61,132 bases of DNA from contig JAWCLB010000003.1 of NCBI GenBank assembly GCA_039091735.1, forward strand, positions 1,295 through 62,426, in the 5' to 3' direction. Numbering within the stretch: the first letter of the stretch is position 1; each line of letters starts with the position of its first letter. This stretch comes from Candidatus Aenigmatarchaeota archaeon. GTDB taxonomy: Archaea; Aenigmatarchaeota; Aenigmatarchaeia; GW2011-AR5; JAHLMP01. Under the pieces are notes generated by a model. It was given only the letters and a program-made list of their open reading frames with translations, was not told the DNA's origin and did not search any database. The translations under genes and the position numbers were made by a program. Shown here one piece after another: positions 1,267 to 58,269 of this stretch.

Positions 1267-2019
1267 TTAAACCTTTTGTGGCGTTTCTTCCTTGCTTATT
1301 TTCGGTTTGAATTCATATCTCTTGTGTCCAAATAACCTATTAGCAATTGCTCTTTTGTTAAATACTACAAAAATTATTCCCATGCCCAAAAGCAGTCCTA
1401 ACACAAAAATTATAGCAAACGAGGATGATGTTGCAATTGAAGAGCCTGTGGCAATGCTCTTTTGCTCTTTTGCAATCTCTTCTATGCTCTTGTTTAACTC
1501 TTGGAGATTACTTAAAACATCAGTACTTATATTTTCTCTTGTCGAGTTTATTATACTTTTGAGTTCAGCCTCAAGCTGCTCTATCCTATTAATCATGTTG
1601 ATTTCAATAGCCTCTATCTCCTTGCCTGCTGTTGCCATTGTTTGAAGCTCTTTTATCTCGCTTTGTGTGATTGTTGTTTCGATTAACAACTTTGCCAACA
1701 GCTTCTCATTAGCGAGCAATTCAATATTATAAGCTCTTATTCCAGACGGAACGGTAATTGTAACAGGAAGTAAAGAATAATAATATTGTGGGATTTCCCT
1801 TCTAATCCAATCAAGTTTTATTATATTACAATCTCCGCGACAGGTAATTTCTATTGTTCTTGTGGTTCCCTCGTCATTTATTATAAAGAACACATACTCA
1901 GTTTCTGTATTTTCGTTAAGGATGATTTTAACATTTTTTTGTGCCTGAGGCACTTGAAAAGCATAGGCAGACGGCAATGCTAAAAGGATTATAATAATTA
2001 AAGAAAGGGCTGTTCTCAT
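1267..2019 (-). CDS. Hypothetical secreted, C-terminally membrane-anchored coiled-coil protein
   Basis: 250-aa ORF with signal peptide MRTALSLIIIILLALPSAYA, a central heptad-like E/K/I-rich stretch, and a C-terminal TM segment FAIIFVLGLLLGMGIIFVVF. No family recognised. Confidence 0.55.
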   Translation of the reverse strand: MRTALSLIIIILLALPSAYAFQVPQAQKNVKIILNENTETEYVFFIINDEGTTRTIEITCRGDCNIIKLDWIRREIPQYYYSLLPVTITVPSGIRAYNIELLANEKLLAKLLIETTITQSEIKELQTMATAGKEIEAIEINMINRIEQLEAELKSIINSTRENISTDVLSNLQELNKSIEEIAKEQKSIATGSSIATSSSFAIIFVLGLLLGMGIIFVVFNKRAIANRLFGHKRYEFKPKISKEETPQKV

Positions 2020-2072
2020 ACTTTATAATTGTTCAGATAGGTATAAAAAAGTTTTTATATTGCTTATGTGCT

Positions 2073-3056
2073 CTAGAATGATCTCGAATACTCAAAAGCA
2101 AGGTCAAAATATCTTTTTGCTATTCTGGCTGCCTTGCTACTAAGCTCGCTAAGCCTGAAAGAAAAAACCTTGCCCCTCACCCATGCACGATAGCACTTAT
2201 AGAAATCTAGCAAAGGAATTAAGTCATAGTCTTTAGCATATTTTATATATTGCTTAATAAAATATTCTGAAAATTTTCTTTTATTGTAAAAATCTAGGTC
2301 CATTGAAAAAAAGGCTACCTCTGATGCTACATCACAGCACGAGATTCTCTTGTTAAACTCCACGCAATCAAATATGTAAATCTTGTCAGCAATGAAAATG
2401 TTGCCAGAATGCAGGTCACCATGACACCATCTTATTTTATTGCTTTCTATTCTCTGTTCAAATAGCTTTCTATTGCTTTTCATAAACATGTTCACTTTAT
2501 TGCTAACAGTATAGAAGATTCTTTTTGAGATTATGTTATTTATGAATTTTTTAGTCTGCTCAAAATTCTCATTCCAGTTGAATCTTATTGTATTTATAGA
2601 ACCATATTTATTTACCTCATTTCCTGTTTCTGCTGTGCTGTGAAAGTCTGCAACAATTTTTGCTATTCTGCTAATTATTCCTTTATCAATTTTGTCTCTT
2701 TTCAGTAGGCTGTTCATTAAGGTACTCTGTGGCATCTCTCTCATCTTTATTGCATATTCTATTATTTTTCCAGAACCATTCAGCTTTATTTTATTGCCCT
2801 CTCTTGTTATTGGTATCACACCATAGTATAGTTCTGGAGACAGCCTACTGTTCAAACGCACTTCCTCATAACAAAAAAATCTTCTTTTTCTGAGAGTTGA
2901 AAAATCTGCAAATCTGAAATTGACGGGTTTCTTTACCTTGTAAGCATATTTACCTGTCAAGAAAATCCAAGAGATATGAGTCTGCAATAATTTTATTTTC
3001 CTTACTTTTTCGTCATATGCATTCCTATTTAGCAAGGCATCTGGAAAGAGTTGCAT
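2073..3056 (-). CDS. Kinase-like phosphotransferase (APH/choline-kinase fold)
   Basis: 327 aa with the catalytic-loop-like motif WCHGDLHSGNIF followed by IFDCVEF, as in the aminoglycoside phosphotransferase family. Confidence 0.6.
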   Translation of the reverse strand: MQLFPDALLNRNAYDEKVRKIKLLQTHISWIFLTGKYAYKVKKPVNFRFADFSTLRKRRFFCYEEVRLNSRLSPELYYGVIPITREGNKIKLNGSGKIIEYAIKMREMPQSTLMNSLLKRDKIDKGIISRIAKIVADFHSTAETGNEVNKYGSINTIRFNWNENFEQTKKFINNIISKRIFYTVSNKVNMFMKSNRKLFEQRIESNKIRWCHGDLHSGNIFIADKIYIFDCVEFNKRISCCDVASEVAFFSMDLDFYNKRKFSEYFIKQYIKYAKDYDLIPLLDFYKCYRAWVRGKVFSFRLSELSSKAARIAKRYFDLAFEYSRSF

Positions 3057-3347
3057 AATTATTTATTGCTTTCATAAATGTTATAAAGTAATCAAAGAGT
3101 GGATGTGACTAATACCCCTTAAGATTTCTATAAAAATTTTAAAAATGCGTTCATGTAATCTGTAGGCTATCGCAGATTTTATGCACTTATACATTCAACT
3201 GAAGCCTATAACTTCTTGCTAATCTTTTTATAACTCATTTTATTCGTCAAGCTATCTATTGTGCAATTTCGCATCTATCATTAAAGATTTCGAGCAGAAG
3301 GAATTACAACGAAAAACTATATAAACTTCTCGGTACAAAGATATAGC

Positions 3348-3653
3348 ATGGTTGAAAAAGCAAAAAATGAAGAAATAATGTTAGATGCCTTCACAAGAGA
3401 AGCTGTTCTCATGATAATTGAAAAATTCAAGAAGCAGGATGCTACTCTATCTGACTTAAAAAGTAGGTTAGCTGTGCTTGAAAGGAAAATAGACTCTCTT
3501 GTAGTCAAAGGGTCTTTAAAACCACAAACAATAGATAATATATTGATAGAGAGGCTTAAGTGCCTTGAAGAAAAGGTCAACAAACTTGAGAATATCGTGA
3601 ACACATTGAAAATACCTAAGATGGACAGAAATATTTTAGATGAATTAAAATAA
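3348..3653 (+). CDS. Hypothetical small coiled-coil protein
   Basis: 101-aa charged, heptad-like ORF. The overlapping minus-strand ORF 3317-3604 is hydrophobic low-complexity, typical of an antisense shadow. Confidence 0.35.
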   Translation: MVEKAKNEEIMLDAFTREAVLMIIEKFKKQDATLSDLKSRLAVLERKIDSLVVKGSLKPQTIDNILIERLKCLEEKVNKLENIVNTLKIPKMDRNILDELK

Positions 3654-9032: not shown

Positions 9033-9329
9033 ATCTCCTGCATAGGTAGTAATCCAGTAGATTGCGATGGCCAAGATATTTGTGCTAATATTTGCAATGG
9101 TAACTTAGTCGTCAGTTACAAGGACTATTATGTTCAAGCTAACACGGGGACTTGCACTTACACCTTCGGGCCAACGATAGAGGATCGCGATCAGAGGTAT
9201 CGCAATCATCGGCCTCGAAGCCGCTGTAGTCTTTATCACTCAAAGGAGGAGGTTGGTAAAGTGAAGAAACATGGAGAGGTGACAACTGGACTTAGAATTC
9301 TGCTAGCAATCCCGATGGTTATCGATGAA
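9033..9329 (+). pseudogene. Start-less Cys-rich ORF remnant
   Basis: Open frame from the stop at 9030-9032 to TGA at 9327-9329. It encodes ISCIGSNPVDCDGQDICANICNGNLVVSYKDYYVQANTGTCTYTFGP...RIPASNPDGYR. The only ATG/GTG/TTG codon is the GTG at 9261, 66 nt before the stop. Its last 27 nt (before the stop codon) lie inside repeat copy 2. Confidence 0.35.
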
Positions 9330-9396
9330 AAGCTTTAAATTTACTCGTTAAATATTTAAAATGAAGGAGAGATTTATGAATAATAAAATCCTGATT
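9301..9396. repeat. Direct repeat copy 2 (96 nt)
   Basis: See copy 1. Identity decays to about 75% over the next 55 nt or so, and afterwards is detectable only at protein level. Confidence 0.95.
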
Positions 9397-46555: not shown

Positions 46556-47872
46556 ATGAAATCAATCCTAGAGTCTGTTCCAGGGTCTCTCTATGTTATA
46601 ATAGCATTTGCTGCTGGAGCAATCATGCTAATATTTATCTTAAGATTTCTGCCTGCTGAGAGCGAGATGACTATCAAACACGAGATACCACGAAGGCTTG
46701 CAGATTTTGCAGAAGATTGCTGGAGAGCACATAGATATGGAATGGACCCTGTGTCAGAGGTCTGCAAGACATTGAGAATAACTAATAAGACAAACGAGAG
46801 CGAGATCACGAAATTCTTGGATTGCAAAAACCTGCCAAACTATGAATGCTATCCTGACAATTGTACTTATTGTAAGTCTGATTTCCACGAAGATAATGAT
46901 AAGCTAATAGCATTCATAGAAGATGCTGGAGAGATAAGGATAAGCTATGTAGACAGGAAGATAAGGATATCTCTAATAGAATGCGATTCCGTTTGCCAAT
47001 GCAAGAGGCTTTGCATAGAGAAGAGCGCTGAAATGAACAAGGAGTGTATGAAGGCCTTATTTTATGCAGATTGCAAAAATGATGTAGATAAATTTTATGA
47101 GGATTGCCTAATTGGCTGTGAGATAACGAGTACAAGCACAACAACTACTACGACATCTACTACAACAACTACTATAAAGCCTGATATATTGATATATATG
47201 GTCAAGGAGTATGCTAGCCCAGACAAGATAAAACAGCTTCTCGAAGGAGCTGGATATGTTACTGATGTCCTAAAAAGGGAAGATGGACATTACATAACAG
47301 AATCGTTACTCTCAAAATACAAGCAGGTGTGGATACTTGATACTACTGAAAACATCGCCATTCCTGAATCAGAGGTTATGGCAGTAGTCAATTACTATAA
47401 TAAGGGTGGCAATCTATTATTATCAGGAGAATGCTGCGGTAATATTAGCAATCCGTTAAGATGTCATGTAGATATTATAGATGCTATATCTGAGAATTTT
47501 GGAGTCAGGTTAAGCACTACAAAAGAGATATGCATTTTCATAGATCGAGAAGAGAATAGTAGCTGTACCATGCCATCATTAGTCAACTTTTATCCACATC
47601 CAATAACAGAAGGCATAACCAAACTAAGCACATCAAAAACCGACATAGACATTACTATAACAAACCCGAATGTTGTTCCTGTTTCTACTGTAAATGAAAA
47701 GATATATATAGCGGTTTTAGATTCTGCTGATGAAAGGGGAAGGATAGTATTTGACTCATCGTTTTTTAGGTTTCTTCCTATTCCAAAAGAGGGATACGTG
47801 GGTGGTCCTGAATACTGTGACAATTCCCAATATGCATTAAACATAGCAAATTGGTTGAATAAAAGTGATTGA
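46556..47872 (+). CDS. Membrane-anchored Cys-rich extracellular protein with Thr-run linker
   Basis: 438 aa. N-terminal TM, a Cys-rich module, a TSTSTTTTTTSTTTTT linker, and a C-terminal alpha/beta-like domain (VWILDTTEN, GGNLLLSGE). Confidence 0.55.
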   Translation: MKSILESVPGSLYVIIAFAAGAIMLIFILRFLPAESEMTIKHEIPRRLADFAEDCWRAHRYGMDPVSEVCKTLRITNKTNESEITKFLDCKNLPNYECYPDNCTYCKSDFHEDNDKLIAFIEDAGEIRISYVDRKIRISLIECDSVCQCKRLCIEKSAEMNKECMKALFYADCKNDVDKFYEDCLIGCEITSTSTTTTTTSTTTTTIKPDILIYMVKEYASPDKIKQLLEGAGYVTDVLKREDGHYITESLLSKYKQVWILDTTENIAIPESEVMAVVNYYNKGGNLLLSGECCGNISNPLRCHVDIIDAISENFGVRLSTTKEICIFIDREENSSCTMPSLVNFYPHPITEGITKLSTSKTDIDITITNPNVVPVSTVNEKIYIAVLDSADERGRIVFDSSFFRFLPIPKEGYVGGPEYCDNSQYALNIANWLNKSD

Positions 47873-49281: not shown

Positions 49282-49842
49282 ATGATCTATATGAATATGA
49301 AAGAAGAATATGCAATAGTCTTAGATTTTTTGGCAACAGGCTATCCTGGAAGGCGCTATGGAGAGCCATTAGCCCAGGCTATTGGCAAGGATTACTTCTC
49401 TCTTCTAGAGCTTGTATCAAAGGAGAATATTATATTAAAACAGGGTGAAGAGGTTTATATTGGAGATGAAAAAAGAGATAAAATAAAGCTCGTGAAAAGA
49501 AGGTTAAGGTTAAGTGACTTGACAAATATTGCATTGTCAAATCTTAAAGAGTTTCTGGATCAGCTTATTGAGAAAAACGAAAAAAGGTTTGTGGACTTTT
49601 TTAATACTGCATCAAGCATAACTCCGAGGCTTCACAAGTTTGAGCTTTTGCCAGGGATCGGAAAAAAGTATGCGCAGGCATTAATAAATCATAGGCCATT
49701 TACCTCTTTTGAAGACATCAAAAATAAGACAGGTATTTCTGACCTTGTAAAGATTATAAAAAAGAGAATATTGGATGAATTAAGTGGAAACGAAAAATAT
49801 TACATATTTGTTGTTCCTGTCAGAACATTTCATGGGCGGTAG
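49282..49842 (+). CDS. DUF655-family protein with helix-hairpin-helix
   Basis: EEYAIVLDFL..GYPG at the N-terminus and LLPGIGKKYAQALINHRPF (HhH) at the C-terminus. Confidence 0.7.
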   Translation: MIYMNMKEEYAIVLDFLATGYPGRRYGEPLAQAIGKDYFSLLELVSKENIILKQGEEVYIGDEKRDKIKLVKRRLRLSDLTNIALSNLKEFLDQLIEKNEKRFVDFFNTASSITPRLHKFELLPGIGKKYAQALINHRPFTSFEDIKNKTGISDLVKIIKKRILDELSGNEKYYIFVVPVRTFHGR

Positions 49843-49993
49843 CTTAATGATTCAGTTGGTTTGCATGAATTCATAACCACTTTTTGTTTTATGCTCACCT
49901 TGTCAGGTTGACAATTGCCAGTGCTTTGTTGGGAACTGCCAGATTGGAAGCTTTGATGTTTATACAAAGCAAGAGTGCACAGGTACTTCGGTC

Positions 49994-50503
49994 ATGATTT
50001 ATGATTTTTTTGATAACGTAGCAACATGGTATCCCACAGAGCCTGGGACTTATTACATAAAAATCTTGTGCGATGATGAAAGAAGCTCTTATTGCACAGC
50101 TGTGAGTGTTGCTAATGCAATCGTAAATCCAAACGTCTTTGTCTCTTGTCCTTTTTGCCAGGCAAGTAAATGCGATTGCTATATTTCAGGATGTCAAGAA
50201 GGCGTGCTTAACATATATGCAAAATCTGATTGCATTGCTACGCCTTCTCTTGCCTATGACTTTTACAATGGAAAGATATCATGGAGCGCTCCTAAAGGAG
50301 GTGATTATTTTATAAAGGTTTTGTGTGATGACAAAGCCAAGTCTGGCTGCATTCCATTGCATGTTGCTGAAAATTTGGAAAGTTGCATAGGAAGATGCAA
50401 TGAATATACAAAGGGTGCTGCATGCCAGTGTGACATAGGCTGCATAAAGAATAATGATTGCTGCAAAGACTTTTGTGAAGCATGCTCAAAGCTTTGTGCT
50501 TAA
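49994..50503 (+). CDS. Cys-rich protein: tandem ~75-aa repeats plus C-terminal somatomedin-B-like module
   Basis: 169 aa. The C-terminus is SCIGRCNEYTKGAACQCDIGCIKNNDCCKDFCEAC. The repeat homology continues upstream of the ATG in frame, to the stop at about 49876-49878. Confidence 0.6.
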   Translation: MIYDFFDNVATWYPTEPGTYYIKILCDDERSSYCTAVSVANAIVNPNVFVSCPFCQASKCDCYISGCQEGVLNIYAKSDCIATPSLAYDFYNGKISWSAPKGGDYFIKVLCDDKAKSGCIPLHVAENLESCIGRCNEYTKGAACQCDIGCIKNNDCCKDFCEACSKLCA

Positions 50504-50563
50504 TAAATTAATGAGCAAAATAGAAAAAAATCTATATAAGCCAACGGAATAATAACTATTAAT

Positions 50564-52501
50564 ATGCCAAGGCAGCCAACATCAATGGAATATAAGGTTT
50601 TCAAGGAAGAGGATATTTTGGCAAAGAGGCCAACATCACTCTATGAAAGATTGTGTAATGTAGCTGAAAAAATTATAAAAATTGAACCTGACCAAAAAAC
50701 CAAAGAAAAAATAGAGCGAGCAATAAAGATAACACATCTGAATGTCTCCCCAGAGGGCGTTGGCTCTCTTACTGTTCTTTCATGCCTTATAATATGCTTT
50801 CTTGGTTTTCTAGGAATTTTGCTAAGTTTTTATCATAATATCCCAGTTTTCTATGGAATCTTCATATTTCTTCTCTCACTTCCTGTAGGTTATTATCTCT
50901 ATAATTATCCTATGAGATATGAAAAGAGGTTTTTAACAGCTATTGGCTCTGAGATAACCTTCTTGATTTTATACATGATTGTCTATTTGAGAGAATCCCC
51001 AAATCTTGAGGGTGCGCTTCGCTTTGCATCGAAAAATTTGTCAGGTCCATTAGCATTGGATATAAGAAAGCTTATGTGGGATATCGAAGTTGGCAAGTAT
51101 AAGACAGTTGATGAGGCATTGATAGATTATACGAGTTTATGGACTGAAGATAGATACTTCATAGAGGCAATCCAGATGCTGAGATCAAGCTTAAAATATA
51201 CAGAGGAGAAAAGGATAGCAACACTTGAAGAGGCAATAAGCATTGTCTTAGAGGGAGCAGAGGAAAAGACAAAACATTATTCTCAAGAGTTGAAGACCCC
51301 TATTCTGCTTTTGCATGCCCTTGGAATTCTCTTGCCTGTTATGGGCTTGGTTATGTTTCCAATTGTTGGGATATTCATGAAAATAAAAGTAGAGGTATTG
51401 TTTCTCGGATACGACGTGATATTACCTCTAGTACTTTATTTCTTCATAACAGATATAATGCAAAGAAGACCACCAACATCGTCACCTATTGCTGAGCACC
51501 CACATATGGCATCAAAAAATAGATTTATCATAAACATCAAAGGCAAACCGCACTCTATTCCATCAATTTTAATAGCTCTTATTATTTCTATTCCAGTTAT
51601 TGTATTTGGTGTTTATACATATCTCTCTAATACTGGTGATAAACTGATAGAGTCAATAATCATAACAACAGGGATTATGATAGGCTTTGTGATGTATTAT
51701 TTCCTCTCTTCATTTCAAAAGGTAAAACTAAGAGAAGAGTTGAGAAAAATTGAATTAGAATTCACAGAAGCGCTGTTCCAACTTGGTAACCAGGTATCAA
51801 CTGGTGTTCCTATTGAGGTTGCAATAGAACGCTCAACAAAAGCCATAGGCGAAATGAATATAAAGAAATTCTTCGCTGTAATTCTAAGAAATATGCAAAG
51901 ATTGGGTATGACATTCTCTCAGGCAATATTTGACCGTGAATATGGGGCAGCCTCATTGTATCCTTCAGTACTAATAAAGTCTATAATGAAAATAGTTGTA
52001 GATTCTGCAAAAAAGGGTGTACAAACCGCCTCTGTGACAATGCTGAACATCTCCAAATATCTGAGAAATGTTCATCAAACCCAAGAAAGGATTCATGATA
52101 TGCTAGAAGATGTCTTGTCATCATTAAGATTTCAAGGGTTTTTGCTAACGCCTTTGGTATCTGGTATAATTGTGACCATGGCAACTATTATGATAGGCAT
52201 ATTACAACAGATTACAGCATCTGTCTCTGGCATTGATGTTCAGACATACATGGCCGGTATTCCGTTTCTACTTAGCAAAATCGGCATTACACCTGGTGCA
52301 TTTCAACTTATCTGCTCGATCTACTTTATTGAAGCCTCTATCCTAACAGGAATGTTTATCAATCGAATAGAAAATGGCGAGGATGAGATAGGAAAGCAGA
52401 ATTTGACATTGAGAATTCTAGTAATAGGTGGCTTTATCTATGCAATCTCGCTGTTTGGCTCTTTGTTTATATTCGGGCCTTTAACAAAAGTGCCTGTCTA
52501 A
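50564..52501 (+). CDS. Large polytopic membrane protein with two T2SSF-like cytoplasmic domains (FlaJ/PilC-like)
   Basis: 645 aa. LRFASKNLSGPLALDIRKLMWDIEVGKYKTVDEAL and LGNQVSTGVPIEVAIERSTKAIGE...RLGMTFSQAI resemble T2SSF domains. Many TM segments. Confidence 0.5.
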   Translation: MPRQPTSMEYKVFKEEDILAKRPTSLYERLCNVAEKIIKIEPDQKTKEKIERAIKITHLNVSPEGVGSLTVLSCLIICFLGFLGILLSFYHNIPVFYGIFIFLLSLPVGYYLYNYPMRYEKRFLTAIGSEITFLILYMIVYLRESPNLEGALRFASKNLSGPLALDIRKLMWDIEVGKYKTVDEALIDYTSLWTEDRYFIEAIQMLRSSLKYTEEKRIATLEEAISIVLEGAEEKTKHYSQELKTPILLLHALGILLPVMGLVMFPIVGIFMKIKVEVLFLGYDVILPLVLYFFITDIMQRRPPTSSPIAEHPHMASKNRFIINIKGKPHSIPSILIALIISIPVIVFGVYTYLSNTGDKLIESIIITTGIMIGFVMYYFLSSFQKVKLREELRKIELEFTEALFQLGNQVSTGVPIEVAIERSTKAIGEMNIKKFFAVILRNMQRLGMTFSQAIFDREYGAASLYPSVLIKSIMKIVVDSAKKGVQTASVTMLNISKYLRNVHQTQERIHDMLEDVLSSLRFQGFLLTPLVSGIIVTMATIMIGILQQITASVSGIDVQTYMAGIPFLLSKIGITPGAFQLICSIYFIEASILTGMFINRIENGEDEIGKQNLTLRILVIGGFIYAISLFGSLFIFGPLTKVPV

Positions 52502-52504
52502 GTT

Positions 52505-52601
52505 GCCCCGTCCGGGATTTGAACCCGGGTCTCAGCCTTTCTCCTTTTTGAGAGGGCTGTATCCTTATCCGTCAAATGTGACCGGACTAGACTAACGGGG
52601 C
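52505..52601 (-). tRNA. tRNA-Glu(CUC) with 10-nt canonical-position intron and an oversized D-arm
   Basis: Minus-strand sequence GCCCCGT TA GTCT [24-nt D-loop] GGAT A CAGCC CTCT-CAA-AAA-GGAG-AAA GGCTG AGAC CCGGG TTCAAAT CCCGG ACGGGGC. The BHB is CTCT/GGAG with bulges CAA and AAA. Removing 52539-52548 leaves the loop CTCTCAA. The D-loop is about 13 nt too long. Confidence 0.6.
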
Positions 52602-53553: not shown

Positions 53554-53673
53554 GCGAGAGTAGCCAAGTGGTCAAAGGCGCTAGGCTTAGGAGCTAAGGG
53601 CGAAGTTCAGGAGCTTGGCGTTGAGTCACCTAGTCCCTTAGTGGGTTCGTCGGTTCGAATCCGACCTCTCGCA
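53554..53673 (+). tRNA. tRNA-Leu(UAG), class II, 36-nt canonical intron (53592-53627)
   Basis: GCGAGAG TA GCC AAGTGGTCAAA GGC G CTAGG CTTAGG|intron|A CCTAG, variable arm TCCCTTAGTGGGTTC, GTCGG TTCGAAT CCGAC CTCTCGC A. BHB helix is CTTA/TGAG with bulges GGA and TCA. Confidence 0.88.
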
Positions 53674-53908: not shown

Positions 53909-54721
53909 TTAAGCCCCATAAAGCGTTTGTAAACCTGTTACATCCGGTTGTTCAAGTGTTCTCTTTTGAGTTTCTTCGTAGTCAGAATAACCATACATAG
54001 TTATTGCTGAACAAGCTGAATCATATACATCTGCTAAGCCAATTCCATGTCCTAATTCGTGGGTTGCTATGTTTTGTAGGTCCATTACTGCTGTTGGGTC
54101 TTCTGGGTCAGTAGTGGGAGTTGTATCAGCATCCCCCCATCTCCAGTCTGTATCAAACATCATATCGAACTCAACTATTGCTTTCGTTGCTGGATTATAC
54201 CATACTGTGGTTACTGCAATCACTCCTTCAGTTGGATAGTCTCCAAATGTTATAGCATTCTGGTAATCTCGAACGCCATAAGTTGCTTCATAATTGATTG
54301 GGCAAATATCATAATTTTGGAAAAGTTCTTTACTTGTGTTTGCATCCCAGGTCTCAGCTGATGTAATTACAGCACTACAAACAAAACTTTCAGAGAGGCT
54401 TTGTGGATTTGTTGGATTTATTACATAATTTACTGGCAGGGTTTTCCATTTCACTTTACCTGTTAAAAACTTGTAGCAAGAGGGTGCTTTGGGTGCTTTT
54501 GCTGCTTCTGGTTTTCCGTATCCCTTCTTATAGTGGATAAATTCTATTTTCTCTAAACCATGTGGGTTTAATACCCAATCATTGTTTATGGTTGGTGATT
54601 TATCTACAGCTACTCCTGCACTTTCTTTCGCTTTATCTGCTAATGGAATCACAATAGCTGCTGAAGCTGCTACTGCCAAGAAAAGTACTGATATTGCAAA
54701 AATGGAAAGCAGTTCTTTCAT
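53909..54721 (-). CDS. Secreted metzincin-type zinc metalloprotease (matrixin/snapalysin-like)
   Basis: 270 aa. Signal peptide MKELLSIFAISVLFLAVAASAA, zinc motif HELGHGIGLAD, and a downstream Met-turn-like SAITMYGY. Confidence 0.75.
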   Translation of the reverse strand: MKELLSIFAISVLFLAVAASAAIVIPLADKAKESAGVAVDKSPTINNDWVLNPHGLEKIEFIHYKKGYGKPEAAKAPKAPSCYKFLTGKVKWKTLPVNYVINPTNPQSLSESFVCSAVITSAETWDANTSKELFQNYDICPINYEATYGVRDYQNAITFGDYPTEGVIAVTTVWYNPATKAIVEFDMMFDTDWRWGDADTTPTTDPEDPTAVMDLQNIATHELGHGIGLADVYDSACSAITMYGYSDYEETQKRTLEQPDVTGLQTLYGA

Positions 54722-56945: not shown

Positions 56946-58118
56946 TTAGCTGAGAATCTTTAGTCCAATCTCTTTTATTCTCTTTTCATAATCAGCTTTT
57001 GTCTCTCCTTTATTTTCCTCTCTCAGGGCATTCAAGAGGTTTAACGAGGTTTTAACATCTTGCAACCTTTTATTCTTGAAATTAAACTTTTTCAAATACT
57101 CCTCAAATAACCTTTTTTCTGTCTCTTCTCTAGTCTCTTCTATTATTTCTATCTCCTCTTCTTCTTTACCCAGCAACTGATTTCTATTTATATAAATTAC
57201 TTTAGCACCTCTCTCTAGAAAATTTTCTTTTATCAAAGAAAAATCTATGTCATAGGGTTTTCCGCTTCTAAGCCTTCCAAATACTTTTATTAAAATTACT
57301 TTATCCTTCACATCAGAAAGGATATCTTTTATTTCCTCCATAACGCTATTTGGATTCTTTCCTGTGACATCGTATTCTAATATGCTTACTTCAGCCTCCT
57401 TTATTTCTATGAATTTGTAATCTATTTTACTATCATCTACGGAAACGATGAAGAAGCCCCTGTCTTCACCTCTTGCTGTATTTTCTAGATCTTGGTACGA
57501 ATAACCGAACAAAGAGCCAGAATAGGCAACTAATGTGTTGCCGATTTTATTAATAGCTCGCTGATGCACATGACCACAAGCTAAATAGTTTACCTCTCCC
57601 TTGAACCTTTTCAAGCTTATTGGCTCTAATCTTGGATCCGGAAAAACCTCTTCTATAGCTGCGTGCAAAACAAATATCTTAAAGGAATTATTATCTAAAA
57701 AGCTTATTTGCGAGATATCTTCCTCGATCTCACCCCTCTTCAATGCCGAGACCCCTGCAATCTTTGCTCTCGTTTTCTTATCTTCAATAAAATTCTTAGT
57801 TAATTTTACAAAAAGGCCAGCAGAGTGCAAAACATCTATTATTGAGGCTTGAATTGGCGAATAATCGTGTGAGCCATAAATCACATAAATCTCTATTCCT
57901 CTGTCCTTCACTTCTCGCATCTTCTTTACAGCTTTACTCAATATCTTAGCGTCTGGCATGTGATTGTCGAATAAGTCACCAGCAACAATAATAAAATCAA
58001 CATCCTCTTCTATGCATTTATCCATTGCTTTTAAGAATGCATTTAGATTCATTTCTCTTAGTGTTAAATCTCTAAAAGCACCGAGATGAACATCTGCGAT
58101 ATGAGCAAATTTTATCAT
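56946..58118 (-). CDS. mre11: Mre11 nuclease
   Basis: MIKFAHIADVHLG, AGDLFD, GSHD, HAAIE, GHVH phosphoesterase motifs. The ORF-track N-terminal extension to 58268 is rejected because it overlaps tRNA-Leu(CAA). Confidence 0.9.
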   Translation of the reverse strand: MIKFAHIADVHLGAFRDLTLREMNLNAFLKAMDKCIEEDVDFIIVAGDLFDNHMPDAKILSKAVKKMREVKDRGIEIYVIYGSHDYSPIQASIIDVLHSAGLFVKLTKNFIEDKKTRAKIAGVSALKRGEIEEDISQISFLDNNSFKIFVLHAAIEEVFPDPRLEPISLKRFKGEVNYLACGHVHQRAINKIGNTLVAYSGSLFGYSYQDLENTARGEDRGFFIVSVDDSKIDYKFIEIKEAEVSILEYDVTGKNPNSVMEEIKDILSDVKDKVILIKVFGRLRSGKPYDIDFSLIKENFLERGAKVIYINRNQLLGKEEEEIEIIEETREETEKRLFEEYLKKFNFKNKRLQDVKTSLNLLNALREENKGETKADYEKRIKEIGLKILS

Positions 58119-58170
58119 GAATAGATTTTGAAAATAAAAATTAAAAATGTTAAATCTAAGTTGAAATAAT

Positions 58171-58267
58171 GCGAGGGTAGCCAAGCGGTCAAAGGCGGTA
58201 GGCTCAAGACCTACTGGCTTAGTGCCTTCGCAGGTTCGAATTTTTTGCGAGAATCCTGCCCCTCGCA
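58171..58267 (+). tRNA. tRNA-Leu(CAA), class II, with 13-nt intron at T-loop position 59/60 (58241-58253)
   Basis: GCGAGGG TA GCC AAGCGGTCAAA GGC G GTAGG CTCAAGA CCTAC TGGCTTAGTGCCTTC GCAGG TTCGAA|ttttttgcgagaa|T CCTGC CCCTCGC A. BHB helix is TTCG/CGAG with bulges AAT and AAT. Confidence 0.85.
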
Positions 58268-58269
58268 TT

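Follow-up and report, generated by a model that had tools for sequence, protein, structure and literature searches.

A somatomedin-B domain on an archaeal contig, in a gene that is probably the 5'-truncated remnant of a secreted Cys-rich protein

The C-terminal tail of a Cys-rich protein encoded in the window (the whole 61,132-nucleotide stretch of DNA analyzed here) is a true member of the somatomedin-B (SMB) family (PF01033, PROSITE SMB_1, SCOP g.64). We consider it likely that this domain sits in a two-sandwich protein of a DPANN-type archaeal family, a label that derives from the relatives (one of them named, “Ca. Pacearchaeota”) and not from the window contig, that it was inherited within that family, and that the copy in the window is a 5'-truncated remnant. 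The following features of the gene were recognized.

49874..49876, forward strand: in-frame TAA at the signal-peptide position of homologues (translation; Logan contigs of three runs)
49877..49993, forward strand: 39 in-frame codons 5' of the annotated ATG, covering strands 1 to 3 of the first sandwich (homology, AlphaFold)
49994..50503, forward strand: mechanically listed 169-aa ORF (P0001), its ATG lying inside repeat 1 (ORF list, homology, model)
49883..50116, forward strand: repeat 1, a Cys-capped Ig/FN3-like beta-sandwich, approximately residues 3 to 80 (internal repeat, homologues, model)
50138..50368, forward strand: repeat 2, a Cys-capped Ig/FN3-like beta-sandwich, approximately residues 88 to 164 (internal repeat, homologues, model)
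50378..50500, forward strand: 10-Cys somatomedin-B-type domain (Pfam PF01033, PDB sequence matches, AlphaFold model, Cys pattern)

The product of 50378-50500 is the peptide ESCIGRCNEYTKGAACQCDIGCIKNNDCCKDFCEACSKLCA, followed by the stop codon at 50501-50503; the C-terminal sequence of the 169-aa ORF is ...ENLESCIGRCNEYTKGAACQCDIGCIKNNDCCKDFCEACSKLCA, and the SMB stops one residue short of the stop codon. In a Pfam-A search the 169-aa ORF matched PF01033 (Somatomedin_B) with 32.0 bits (E 1.5e-7), and the tail by itself scored 37.2 bits (E 3.6e-9), against a curated gathering cutoff of 23.1 bits, so that the HMMER comparison proposed by the sequence-only reading came out in its favor. The alignment spans positions 1 to 39 of the 40 in the Pfam model, while the N-terminal repeats, which are equally Cys-rich, gave no SMB match in Pfam. 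Among all PDB sequences, phmmer returned SMB1 of a uridylate-specific endoribonuclease of the ENDOU type (9ftw_A) as the best match (E 4.8e-9), with vitronectin and ENPP1 at ~0.01 and SMB-bearing proteins forming the majority of the matches. The window SMB and ENDOU SMB1 are identical at 18 of 38 aligned positions, and their non-Cys identities lie within E-S-C, R-C-N-E, A-A-C-Q-C-D, and C-C-x-D. Taken together, the Pfam score, the PDB matches, and these non-Cys identities place the SMB observation well beyond chance.

The PROSITE-style SMB signature, C-x-C-x(3)-C-x(5)-C-C-x-[DN]-[FY]-x(3)-C, can be read directly in the window SMB as C-Q-C-DIG-C-IKNND-C-C-K-D-F-CEA-C, a match that is letter for letter, as first claimed. 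The cysteine spacing of vitronectin, claimed at the same time, holds as a pattern and passes PF01033, except that cysteines 2 and 3 are separated by 8 residues and not 9, a loop one residue short of that in vitronectin, and that the domain has 10 cysteines, not 8. The canonical eight, C170, C174, C183, C185, C189, C195, C196, and C203 (208-aa numbering), are invariant in a 50-sequence SMB alignment; the additional ones are C200, directly after D-F, and C207, near the C terminus (reported as three residues before it). The window SMB represents a 10-Cys variant with the pattern CC-x-D-[FI]-C-x2-C-x3-5-C (CC-x-D-F-C-x2-C-x3-C in the window), and the two additional cysteines occur together in 45 of the 49 domains having the first (Fisher p 3e-13). 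The alignment and this co-occurrence suggest a fifth disulfide, C200-C207. The disulfides of vitronectin, in crystal numbering, are C5-C21, C9-C39, C19-C32, and C25-C31; carried onto the window SMB, this connectivity would presumably give C170-C185, C174-C203, C183-C196, and C189-C195.

An AlphaFold2 model of residues 160 to 208, built with 49 SMB rows, had a mean pLDDT of 86.3, with 34 of the 49 residues at 90 or above. The SMB and the N-terminal repeats were modeled apart, since a joint MAFFT alignment stacked rows of the repeats on the SMB cysteines. The best 50 Foldseek matches of the SMB model in the PDB were, without exception, SMBs of enzymes of the ENPP family (ENPP1, autotaxin/ENPP2, ENPP3, and snake-venom phosphodiesterase), and the best superpositions, on the ENPP1 SMB, had an RMSD of 0.9 to 1.1 Å over 33 to 35 aligned columns with a probability of 0.99 to 1.00. 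TM scores normalized to the query were 0.56 to 0.66; the E-values, 3e-3 and weaker, reflect the small size of the domain. The compact SMB disulfide-knot fold with one short helix is thus predicted for the window tail, and structure prediction, the second check that had been proposed, places it on the ENPP1 SMB at ~1 Å.

N-terminal to the SMB lie two repeats of ~80 residues each with 38% mutual identity (E 1e-21) and the consensus I.C..C....C.C.I..C..G...VY....C.G.P.Y...F..G...W.P...G.YY....CDDG..S.C....V. They were matched by ~100 among the 150 representative proteins listed. The AlphaFold model of residues 1 to 166 (mean pLDDT 91.6) consists of two seven-stranded beta-sandwiches in tandem, for which Foldseek found tandem FN3/Ig-like pairs (probability 1.0, E down to 5e-6). 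The predicted arrangement resembles the tandem sandwiches of fibronectin (FN7-10 and FN12-14), GPVI, OSCAR, and the Aureispira grappling-hook protein GhpA, but identity with these arrays is only 5 to 16%, and each window repeat, unlike them, has a Cys-rich start, C-x2-C-x4-C-x-C-x4-C, plus a CDD...C motif. No Pfam family matched the repeats above cutoff; Y_Y_Y, PPC, and Filamin, of the same fold class, appeared below threshold only. Neither a second SMB domain nor a further copy of the repeat was found elsewhere in the window.

The 169-aa ORF, which had been taken for the whole protein, does not cover the full homologous frame. The coding frame is open from 49877, giving 208 codons, 39 more than the ORF, and 49877-49993 is homologous to relatives with the pattern CSPCQ.NCQCF..GC..G..D.YT. 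The alignments with P0002, P0003, and ~100 representative proteins begin at query residue 3, and strands E3-10, E13-19, and E23-29 of sandwich 1 precede the annotated ATG in a block with a pLDDT of 91 to 97. The closest homologue of the window protein is P0002 (42% identity), from the JGI contig L001; P0002, P0003, and the product of L028 6499-7077, the only close full-length homologues, consist of two repeats without the SMB tail.

A classical signal peptide stands directly before the I-x-C-x-x-C of repeat 1 in nine of nine homologues examined. At this position the window has the TAA (...MIQLVCMNS-TAA-PLFVLCSPCQ...), preceded by a short upstream frame that starts at ATG 49848; the TAA is only 34 nt beyond the end of the upstream DUF655 gene at 49842. 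No signal peptide was found upstream of 49877 in any of the three frames that a frameshift or an alternative frame could bring into use. The window copy lacks both the signal peptide and the Thr-rich linkers of related archaeal proteins. In Logan contigs from runs of one hot-spring metagenome study, the TAA is covered at 49560-49912 (X1), 49614-50529 (X2), and 49701-49956 (X4) without a differing letter, a form of support that comes from assembled contigs, which drop rare variants, and not from raw reads. The junction between the repeats and the SMB is crossed by contigs from the same three runs, and three or four independent runs provide contigs that reach across the TAA and both domain junctions; neither the TAA nor the repeat-SMB junction is an artifact of a single assembly. 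Within the frame we found two variants, 50138 T>C (F88L) and 50253 C>T (A126V), both non-synonymous and too few for any interpretation. The single metatranscriptome that the study includes contained nothing from the region, the neighboring ribosomal-protein genes being missing as well.

Since the TAA falls where homologues have their signal peptide, the window copy is most likely a 5'-truncated, non-secreted remnant, that is, probably a pseudogene or a recently inactivated gene of a secreted protein. The 208-codon frame is intact and all cysteines are kept, so that either inactivation was recent or an unrecognized start or read-through is in use. An extracellular location, judged from the missing export signal, would not apply to the window copy; location depends on the carrier protein, not on the domain fold.

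The genes just 5' encode prefoldin beta, ribosomal protein L21e, RpoF/Rpb4, and the DUF655 protein. On the 3' side lies a gene for a polytopic membrane protein of 645 aa that is assigned to no family, and further on are two intron-bearing tRNAs, an M10 (matrixin-type) peptidase, and Rad50- and Mre11-like genes. Judged from the neighboring genes and the intron-bearing tRNAs, the contig DNA is archaeal, and the proposal of a C-terminal module in a Cys-rich protein on an archaeal contig agrees with the prefoldin beta, L21e, RpoF/Rpb4, and DUF655 genes nearby.

A HMMER scan of 1.84 billion representative proteins with the window protein returned 164 proteins at E<=1e-3, which fall into an N-repeat population and an SMB population, and PF01033 was present in 49 of the 50 SMB-type proteins among the matches listed. 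The six best per-domain SMB matches are C-terminal 10-Cys SMBs ending in CC[QK]DFC[QE][AV]C...C-end (L023, L024, L026, P0049, P0143), and they come from contigs with a GC content of 0.31 to 0.33 or from similar representative proteins. The low-GC contigs with the nearest SMB relatives appear to be archaeal by three indications: the LeuRS of L024 scored 1016 bits on the archaeal equivalog TIGR00395 vs 197 bits on the bacterial model, L028 encodes an archaeal-type signal peptidase I, and P0152 is an NCBI hypothetical protein of a “Candidatus Pacearchaeota” MAG (GCA_038895635.1), in which a signal peptide is followed directly by a 10-Cys SMB. A word-indexed homology search with the 46-aa tail as query gave no candidate, and the same kind of search with a 14-sequence SMB profile gave one protein, P0152. 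The whole window protein had no match among viral contigs, and an Rfam scan of the related archaeal loci found no RNA genes informative for taxonomy.

The signature of the window SMB is common to all members of the 10-Cys archaeal set (L023, L024, L026, L027, L028, and L031; P0009, P0049, P0067, P0074, P0143, and P0152), with 43 to 60% SMB identity to the window, and most of them also end in an SMB. The window-type N-repeat recurs in L027, where an open frame of 722 codons (1458-3626) encodes a signal peptide, one such repeat, two 10-Cys SMBs, and more N-repeats, and in L028, where the gene for an SMB protein is followed by an adjacent gene for a two-repeat protein without an SMB (E 1.3e-29). 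Because L027 and L028 share its modules, the domain combination of the window is a recurring theme of one archaeal family, and the domain is not an isolated archaeal copy. SMB genes stand side by side, several per locus, in L023, L024, and L028. Complete archaeal 10-Cys proteins have signal peptides, Thr-rich linkers, and usually at least two SMB copies, none of which is found in the window copy. By its N-repeats and its 10-Cys SMB, the window protein appears to belong to this unnamed archaeal family of secreted “Cys-capped Ig-like repeat/10-Cys SMB” proteins, while the missing signal peptide and Thr-rich linkers would fit a truncated, compact derivative. We envisage a lineage-specific secreted Cys-rich family in low-GC, DPANN-type archaea in which both modules are shuffled and multiplied.

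SMB domains are usually regarded as modules of animal extracellular-matrix and plasma proteins. A fold survey lists SCOP g.64 (SMB) as a Holozoa-specific fold and a synapomorphy of Holozoa (PMC9541633). Our full-text literature search on SMB in prokaryotes found no paper describing prokaryotic SMB domains, although automated Pfam annotation already labels archaeal proteins as SMB. We scanned one genome per GTDB species (185,579 species) with two narrow peptide patterns and confirmed the matches by tblastn; at least 20 SMB loci (L003 to L022), a lower bound, were recovered, all in bacterial MAGs or SAGs. Most of these 20 are labeled Myxococcales, Myxococcota, or Deltaproteobacteria, the other labels including several “Proteobacteria,” three “uncultured Enterobacteriaceae,” and one Marinimicrobia. 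The pattern scan returned no archaeal genome, and the window genome is evidently not among the GTDB-species representatives. The bacterial loci carry one to four SMBs, of both the 8-Cys and the 10-Cys kinds, in mostly large proteins, nearly all of high GC and several with lipoprotein-type N termini. SMBs of Myxococcota and other bacteria, the 10-Cys form included, show 41 to 58% tblastn identity to that of the window, but their high-GC, multidomain carriers are without the archaeal N-repeat. Among the SMB matches of the HMMER scan, many show bacterial lipoprotein-like N termini, some have animal-type partners (CUB, hemopexin, XendoU, astacin, ZP, TSP1), and one carries a T9SS Por_Secre_tail, a sign of Bacteroidota origin. 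The view of SMB as an essentially eukaryotic domain fails because current sequence collections contain archaeal and bacterial SMBs, on archaeal contigs, in the Pacearchaeota MAG, and in bacterial MAGs that are mainly of Myxococcota. With archaeal contigs and 20 bacterial loci carrying the domain, it is the restriction to Holozoa that does not hold, not the membership of these sequences in the family.

The window SMB shares with those of animals (ENDOU, 9ftw; vitronectin, 1oc0, 1s4g, and 3bt1; ENPP1/2/3, 6wet, 5l0b, and 6c01) the eight canonical cysteines, G-R-C, Q-C-D, D-C-C-x-D-[FY], a length of ~40 residues, and a passing Pfam score. It differs from them in two more cysteines (C200 and C207) and in its archaeal host. 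Its position is at the extreme C terminus, whereas the SMBs of vitronectin, ENPP, and ENDOU are N-terminal, and its partners are Cys-capped Ig/FN3-like repeats in place of hemopexin, phosphodiesterase, and XendoU. The PAI-1, uPAR, and integrin ligands of animal SMBs are without a counterpart in the archaeal setting.

From the tail, the sequence-only reading had left two options, convergent knot chemistry or a remarkable transfer; neither describes the domain, which is homologous to animal SMBs and has relatives in other archaea. That an unrelated archaeal Cys-rich tail would share the SMB spacing by chance is a thought invited by the shortness of the domain, in which cysteines dominate and make up much of any alignment score, and by the two cysteines that the canonical SMB lacks. 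The Pfam cutoff is nevertheless exceeded by 9 to 14 bits across the whole model, non-Cys positions are common to ENDOU, vitronectin, and ENPP (G-R-C, Y/F, Q-C-D, D-C-C-x-D-F/Y), the predicted backbone lies on the ENPP1 SMB at ~1 Å, and the equally Cys-rich repeats of the same protein draw no SMB match. In addition, the 177,635 PDB sequences were searched with a 14-sequence profile that combines the window SMB with 13 others taken from low-GC archaeal-type contigs or from similar representative proteins; all 41 matches were SMB proteins (E 5.9e-13 for ENDOU, 5.5e-6 for vitronectin, 2e-5 for autotaxin, and 5e-3 for SUSD2). The profile matches, the Pfam score, and the fold rule out convergence for practical purposes, and we give it almost no weight; as far as sequence statistics and predicted fold allow, the window SMB is homologous to the animal SMB. 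A recent one-off capture of an SMB exon from an animal or other eukaryote, or else a chimeric assembly or contamination, is only slightly less improbable. The best solved relative is ENDOU SMB1, of an animal-type protein, and the family has gained or lost the tail, given its absence from P0002, P0003, and L028 6499-7077. Against this, contigs of several runs extend across the repeat-SMB junction and the entire gene, and other archaeal contigs have the domain in several genes per locus, with the same N-repeat pairing in L027. A compositional anomaly of the SMB segment was looked for and rejected, GC and GC3 being the same as in the rest of the gene (0.405 and 0.357 in the SMB-coding part, 0.398 and 0.337 in the N-terminal part) and near the genome mean, that is, within ~1.6 SD of the means of the window genes (0.356 ± 0.030 and 0.319 ± 0.043; GC content of the window, 35%). 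The nearest SMB sequences are archaeal. A neighbor-joining tree of 77 SMB cores gave no resolved branching, and mean BLOSUM62 distances from the window core, used instead, were 0.434 for archaeal, 0.498 for bacterial, and 0.54 to 0.56 for eukaryotic SMBs; the smallest mean distance being to archaeal SMBs, the domain was inherited within the archaeal family and is not a recent capture from an animal.

A different question is whether the gene works as it stands, starting at ATG 49994 or at an unrecognized start and yielding a Cys-rich protein that is not secreted and forms its disulfides within the cell. Intracellular disulfide formation has been reported for some thermophilic archaea, and the sample is from a hot spring; moreover, the 208 codons are open, every structural cysteine is intact, and a weak AGGT lies 11 to 14 nt upstream of ATG 49994. 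A start at this ATG, however, would cost the first sandwich three of its seven strands, and the homologues examined carry a signal peptide without exception. The in-frame variants, both non-synonymous, fit relaxed constraint, although two sites are too few to weigh. We regard a functional gene as unlikely and retain the truncated remnant as the preferred reading.

The clear archaeal and bacterial homologues move the question of SMB origin out of animals. It is tempting to speculate, as a possibility to which we assign rather low probability, that the SMB knot is an old prokaryotic extracellular module (Myxococcota, DPANN-type archaea) and not a holozoan invention, that an ancestor of animals acquired it, and that the C-terminal 10-Cys form of archaea serves attachment between cells or to a host. 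Small-genome archaea are generally predicted to have a lifestyle for which they must attach to other cells, and the gene directs attention to surface proteins of these organisms that form a disulfide-rich family. Since the window gene is probably damaged, it is valuable as a pointer to this family and not as a functional example.

Tandem Ig/FN3 arrays and the SMB domains of vitronectin and the ENPPs are known protein-binding modules. In view of these roles, the signal peptides, the Thr-rich linkers in many members, and the numerous disulfides, intact family members are most likely extracellular, disulfide-stabilized binding or adhesion proteins in which the SMB knot would act as a terminal protein-binding module; the function of the window copy itself is doubtful because the export signal is lost. 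The terminal position of the SMB suggests a defined interaction or capping module at the end of the protein. In the window and its closest relatives the domain ends at, or one residue past, its last cysteine, the window protein closing with ...SKLCA and the archaeal 10-Cys relatives with ...MPGC or ...PWC.

On two of the low-GC archaeal contigs that carry relatives of the window's somatomedin-B (SMB) domain, L023 and L028, SMB genes and genes for the N-repeat, a Cys-capped Ig/FN3-like beta-sandwich repeat, adjoin one another in runs of two or three, which suggests local duplication and domain shuffling:

L023 42-1268 and 1327-2352, tandem SMB/N-repeat genes
L028 2436-4214, 4339-6471 and 6499-7077, tandem SMB/N-repeat genes

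An orthologue of the 409-aa SMB protein of L023, 93 to 97% identical to it, is encoded on a third such contig (L024 4946-6132), where a frameshift within the first SMB domain, apparently the loss of one base, splits the gene. This is a second disrupted gene of the SMB protein family; the gene may have genuinely decayed or be subject to on/off variation, or the frameshift may be a sequencing error.

A single SMB domain of the 10-Cys form (CC-x-D-[FI]-C-x2-C-x3-5-C, with two cysteines beyond the canonical eight) is found in a 1204-aa bacterial protein encoded at L019 1983-5597, in a low-GC (0.31) single-cell genome of Marinimicrobia. Thus, the 10-Cys form is not confined to archaea.

Other features of the window are:

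9033-9335 (+), open frame of 101 codons with 6 Cys, starting ISCIGSNPVDCDGQDICANIC
46556-47872 (+), 438-aa protein containing 20 cysteines, with a membrane anchor at its N-terminus
50564-52501 (+), 645-aa polytopic membrane protein, directly 3' of the SMB gene
52504-52601 (-), over-long tRNA, 98 nt (Rfam)
53554-53673 (+), over-long tRNA, 120 nt (Rfam)
53909-54721 (-), 270-aa ORF matching Peptidase_M10 (matrixin; 45 bits, cut-off 24; E 1.2e-11)
58171-58232 (+), weak tRNA-like match, 62 nt (Rfam)

Neither the 438-aa nor the 645-aa protein has a family in Pfam or NCBIfam; the former is possibly a further disulfide-rich surface protein specific to the lineage. The 101-codon frame matches neither the SMB nor the N-repeat profile. 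Matrixins, like SMB domains, are best known from the animal extracellular matrix. The Peptidase_M10 ORF lies ~3.4 kb from the SMB gene.

Both over-long tRNAs, which were not detected by ARAGORN, presumably bear introns. The 62-nt match falls within the 5' end of an Mre11-like ORF (56946-58268, -), the start of which may be over-extended.
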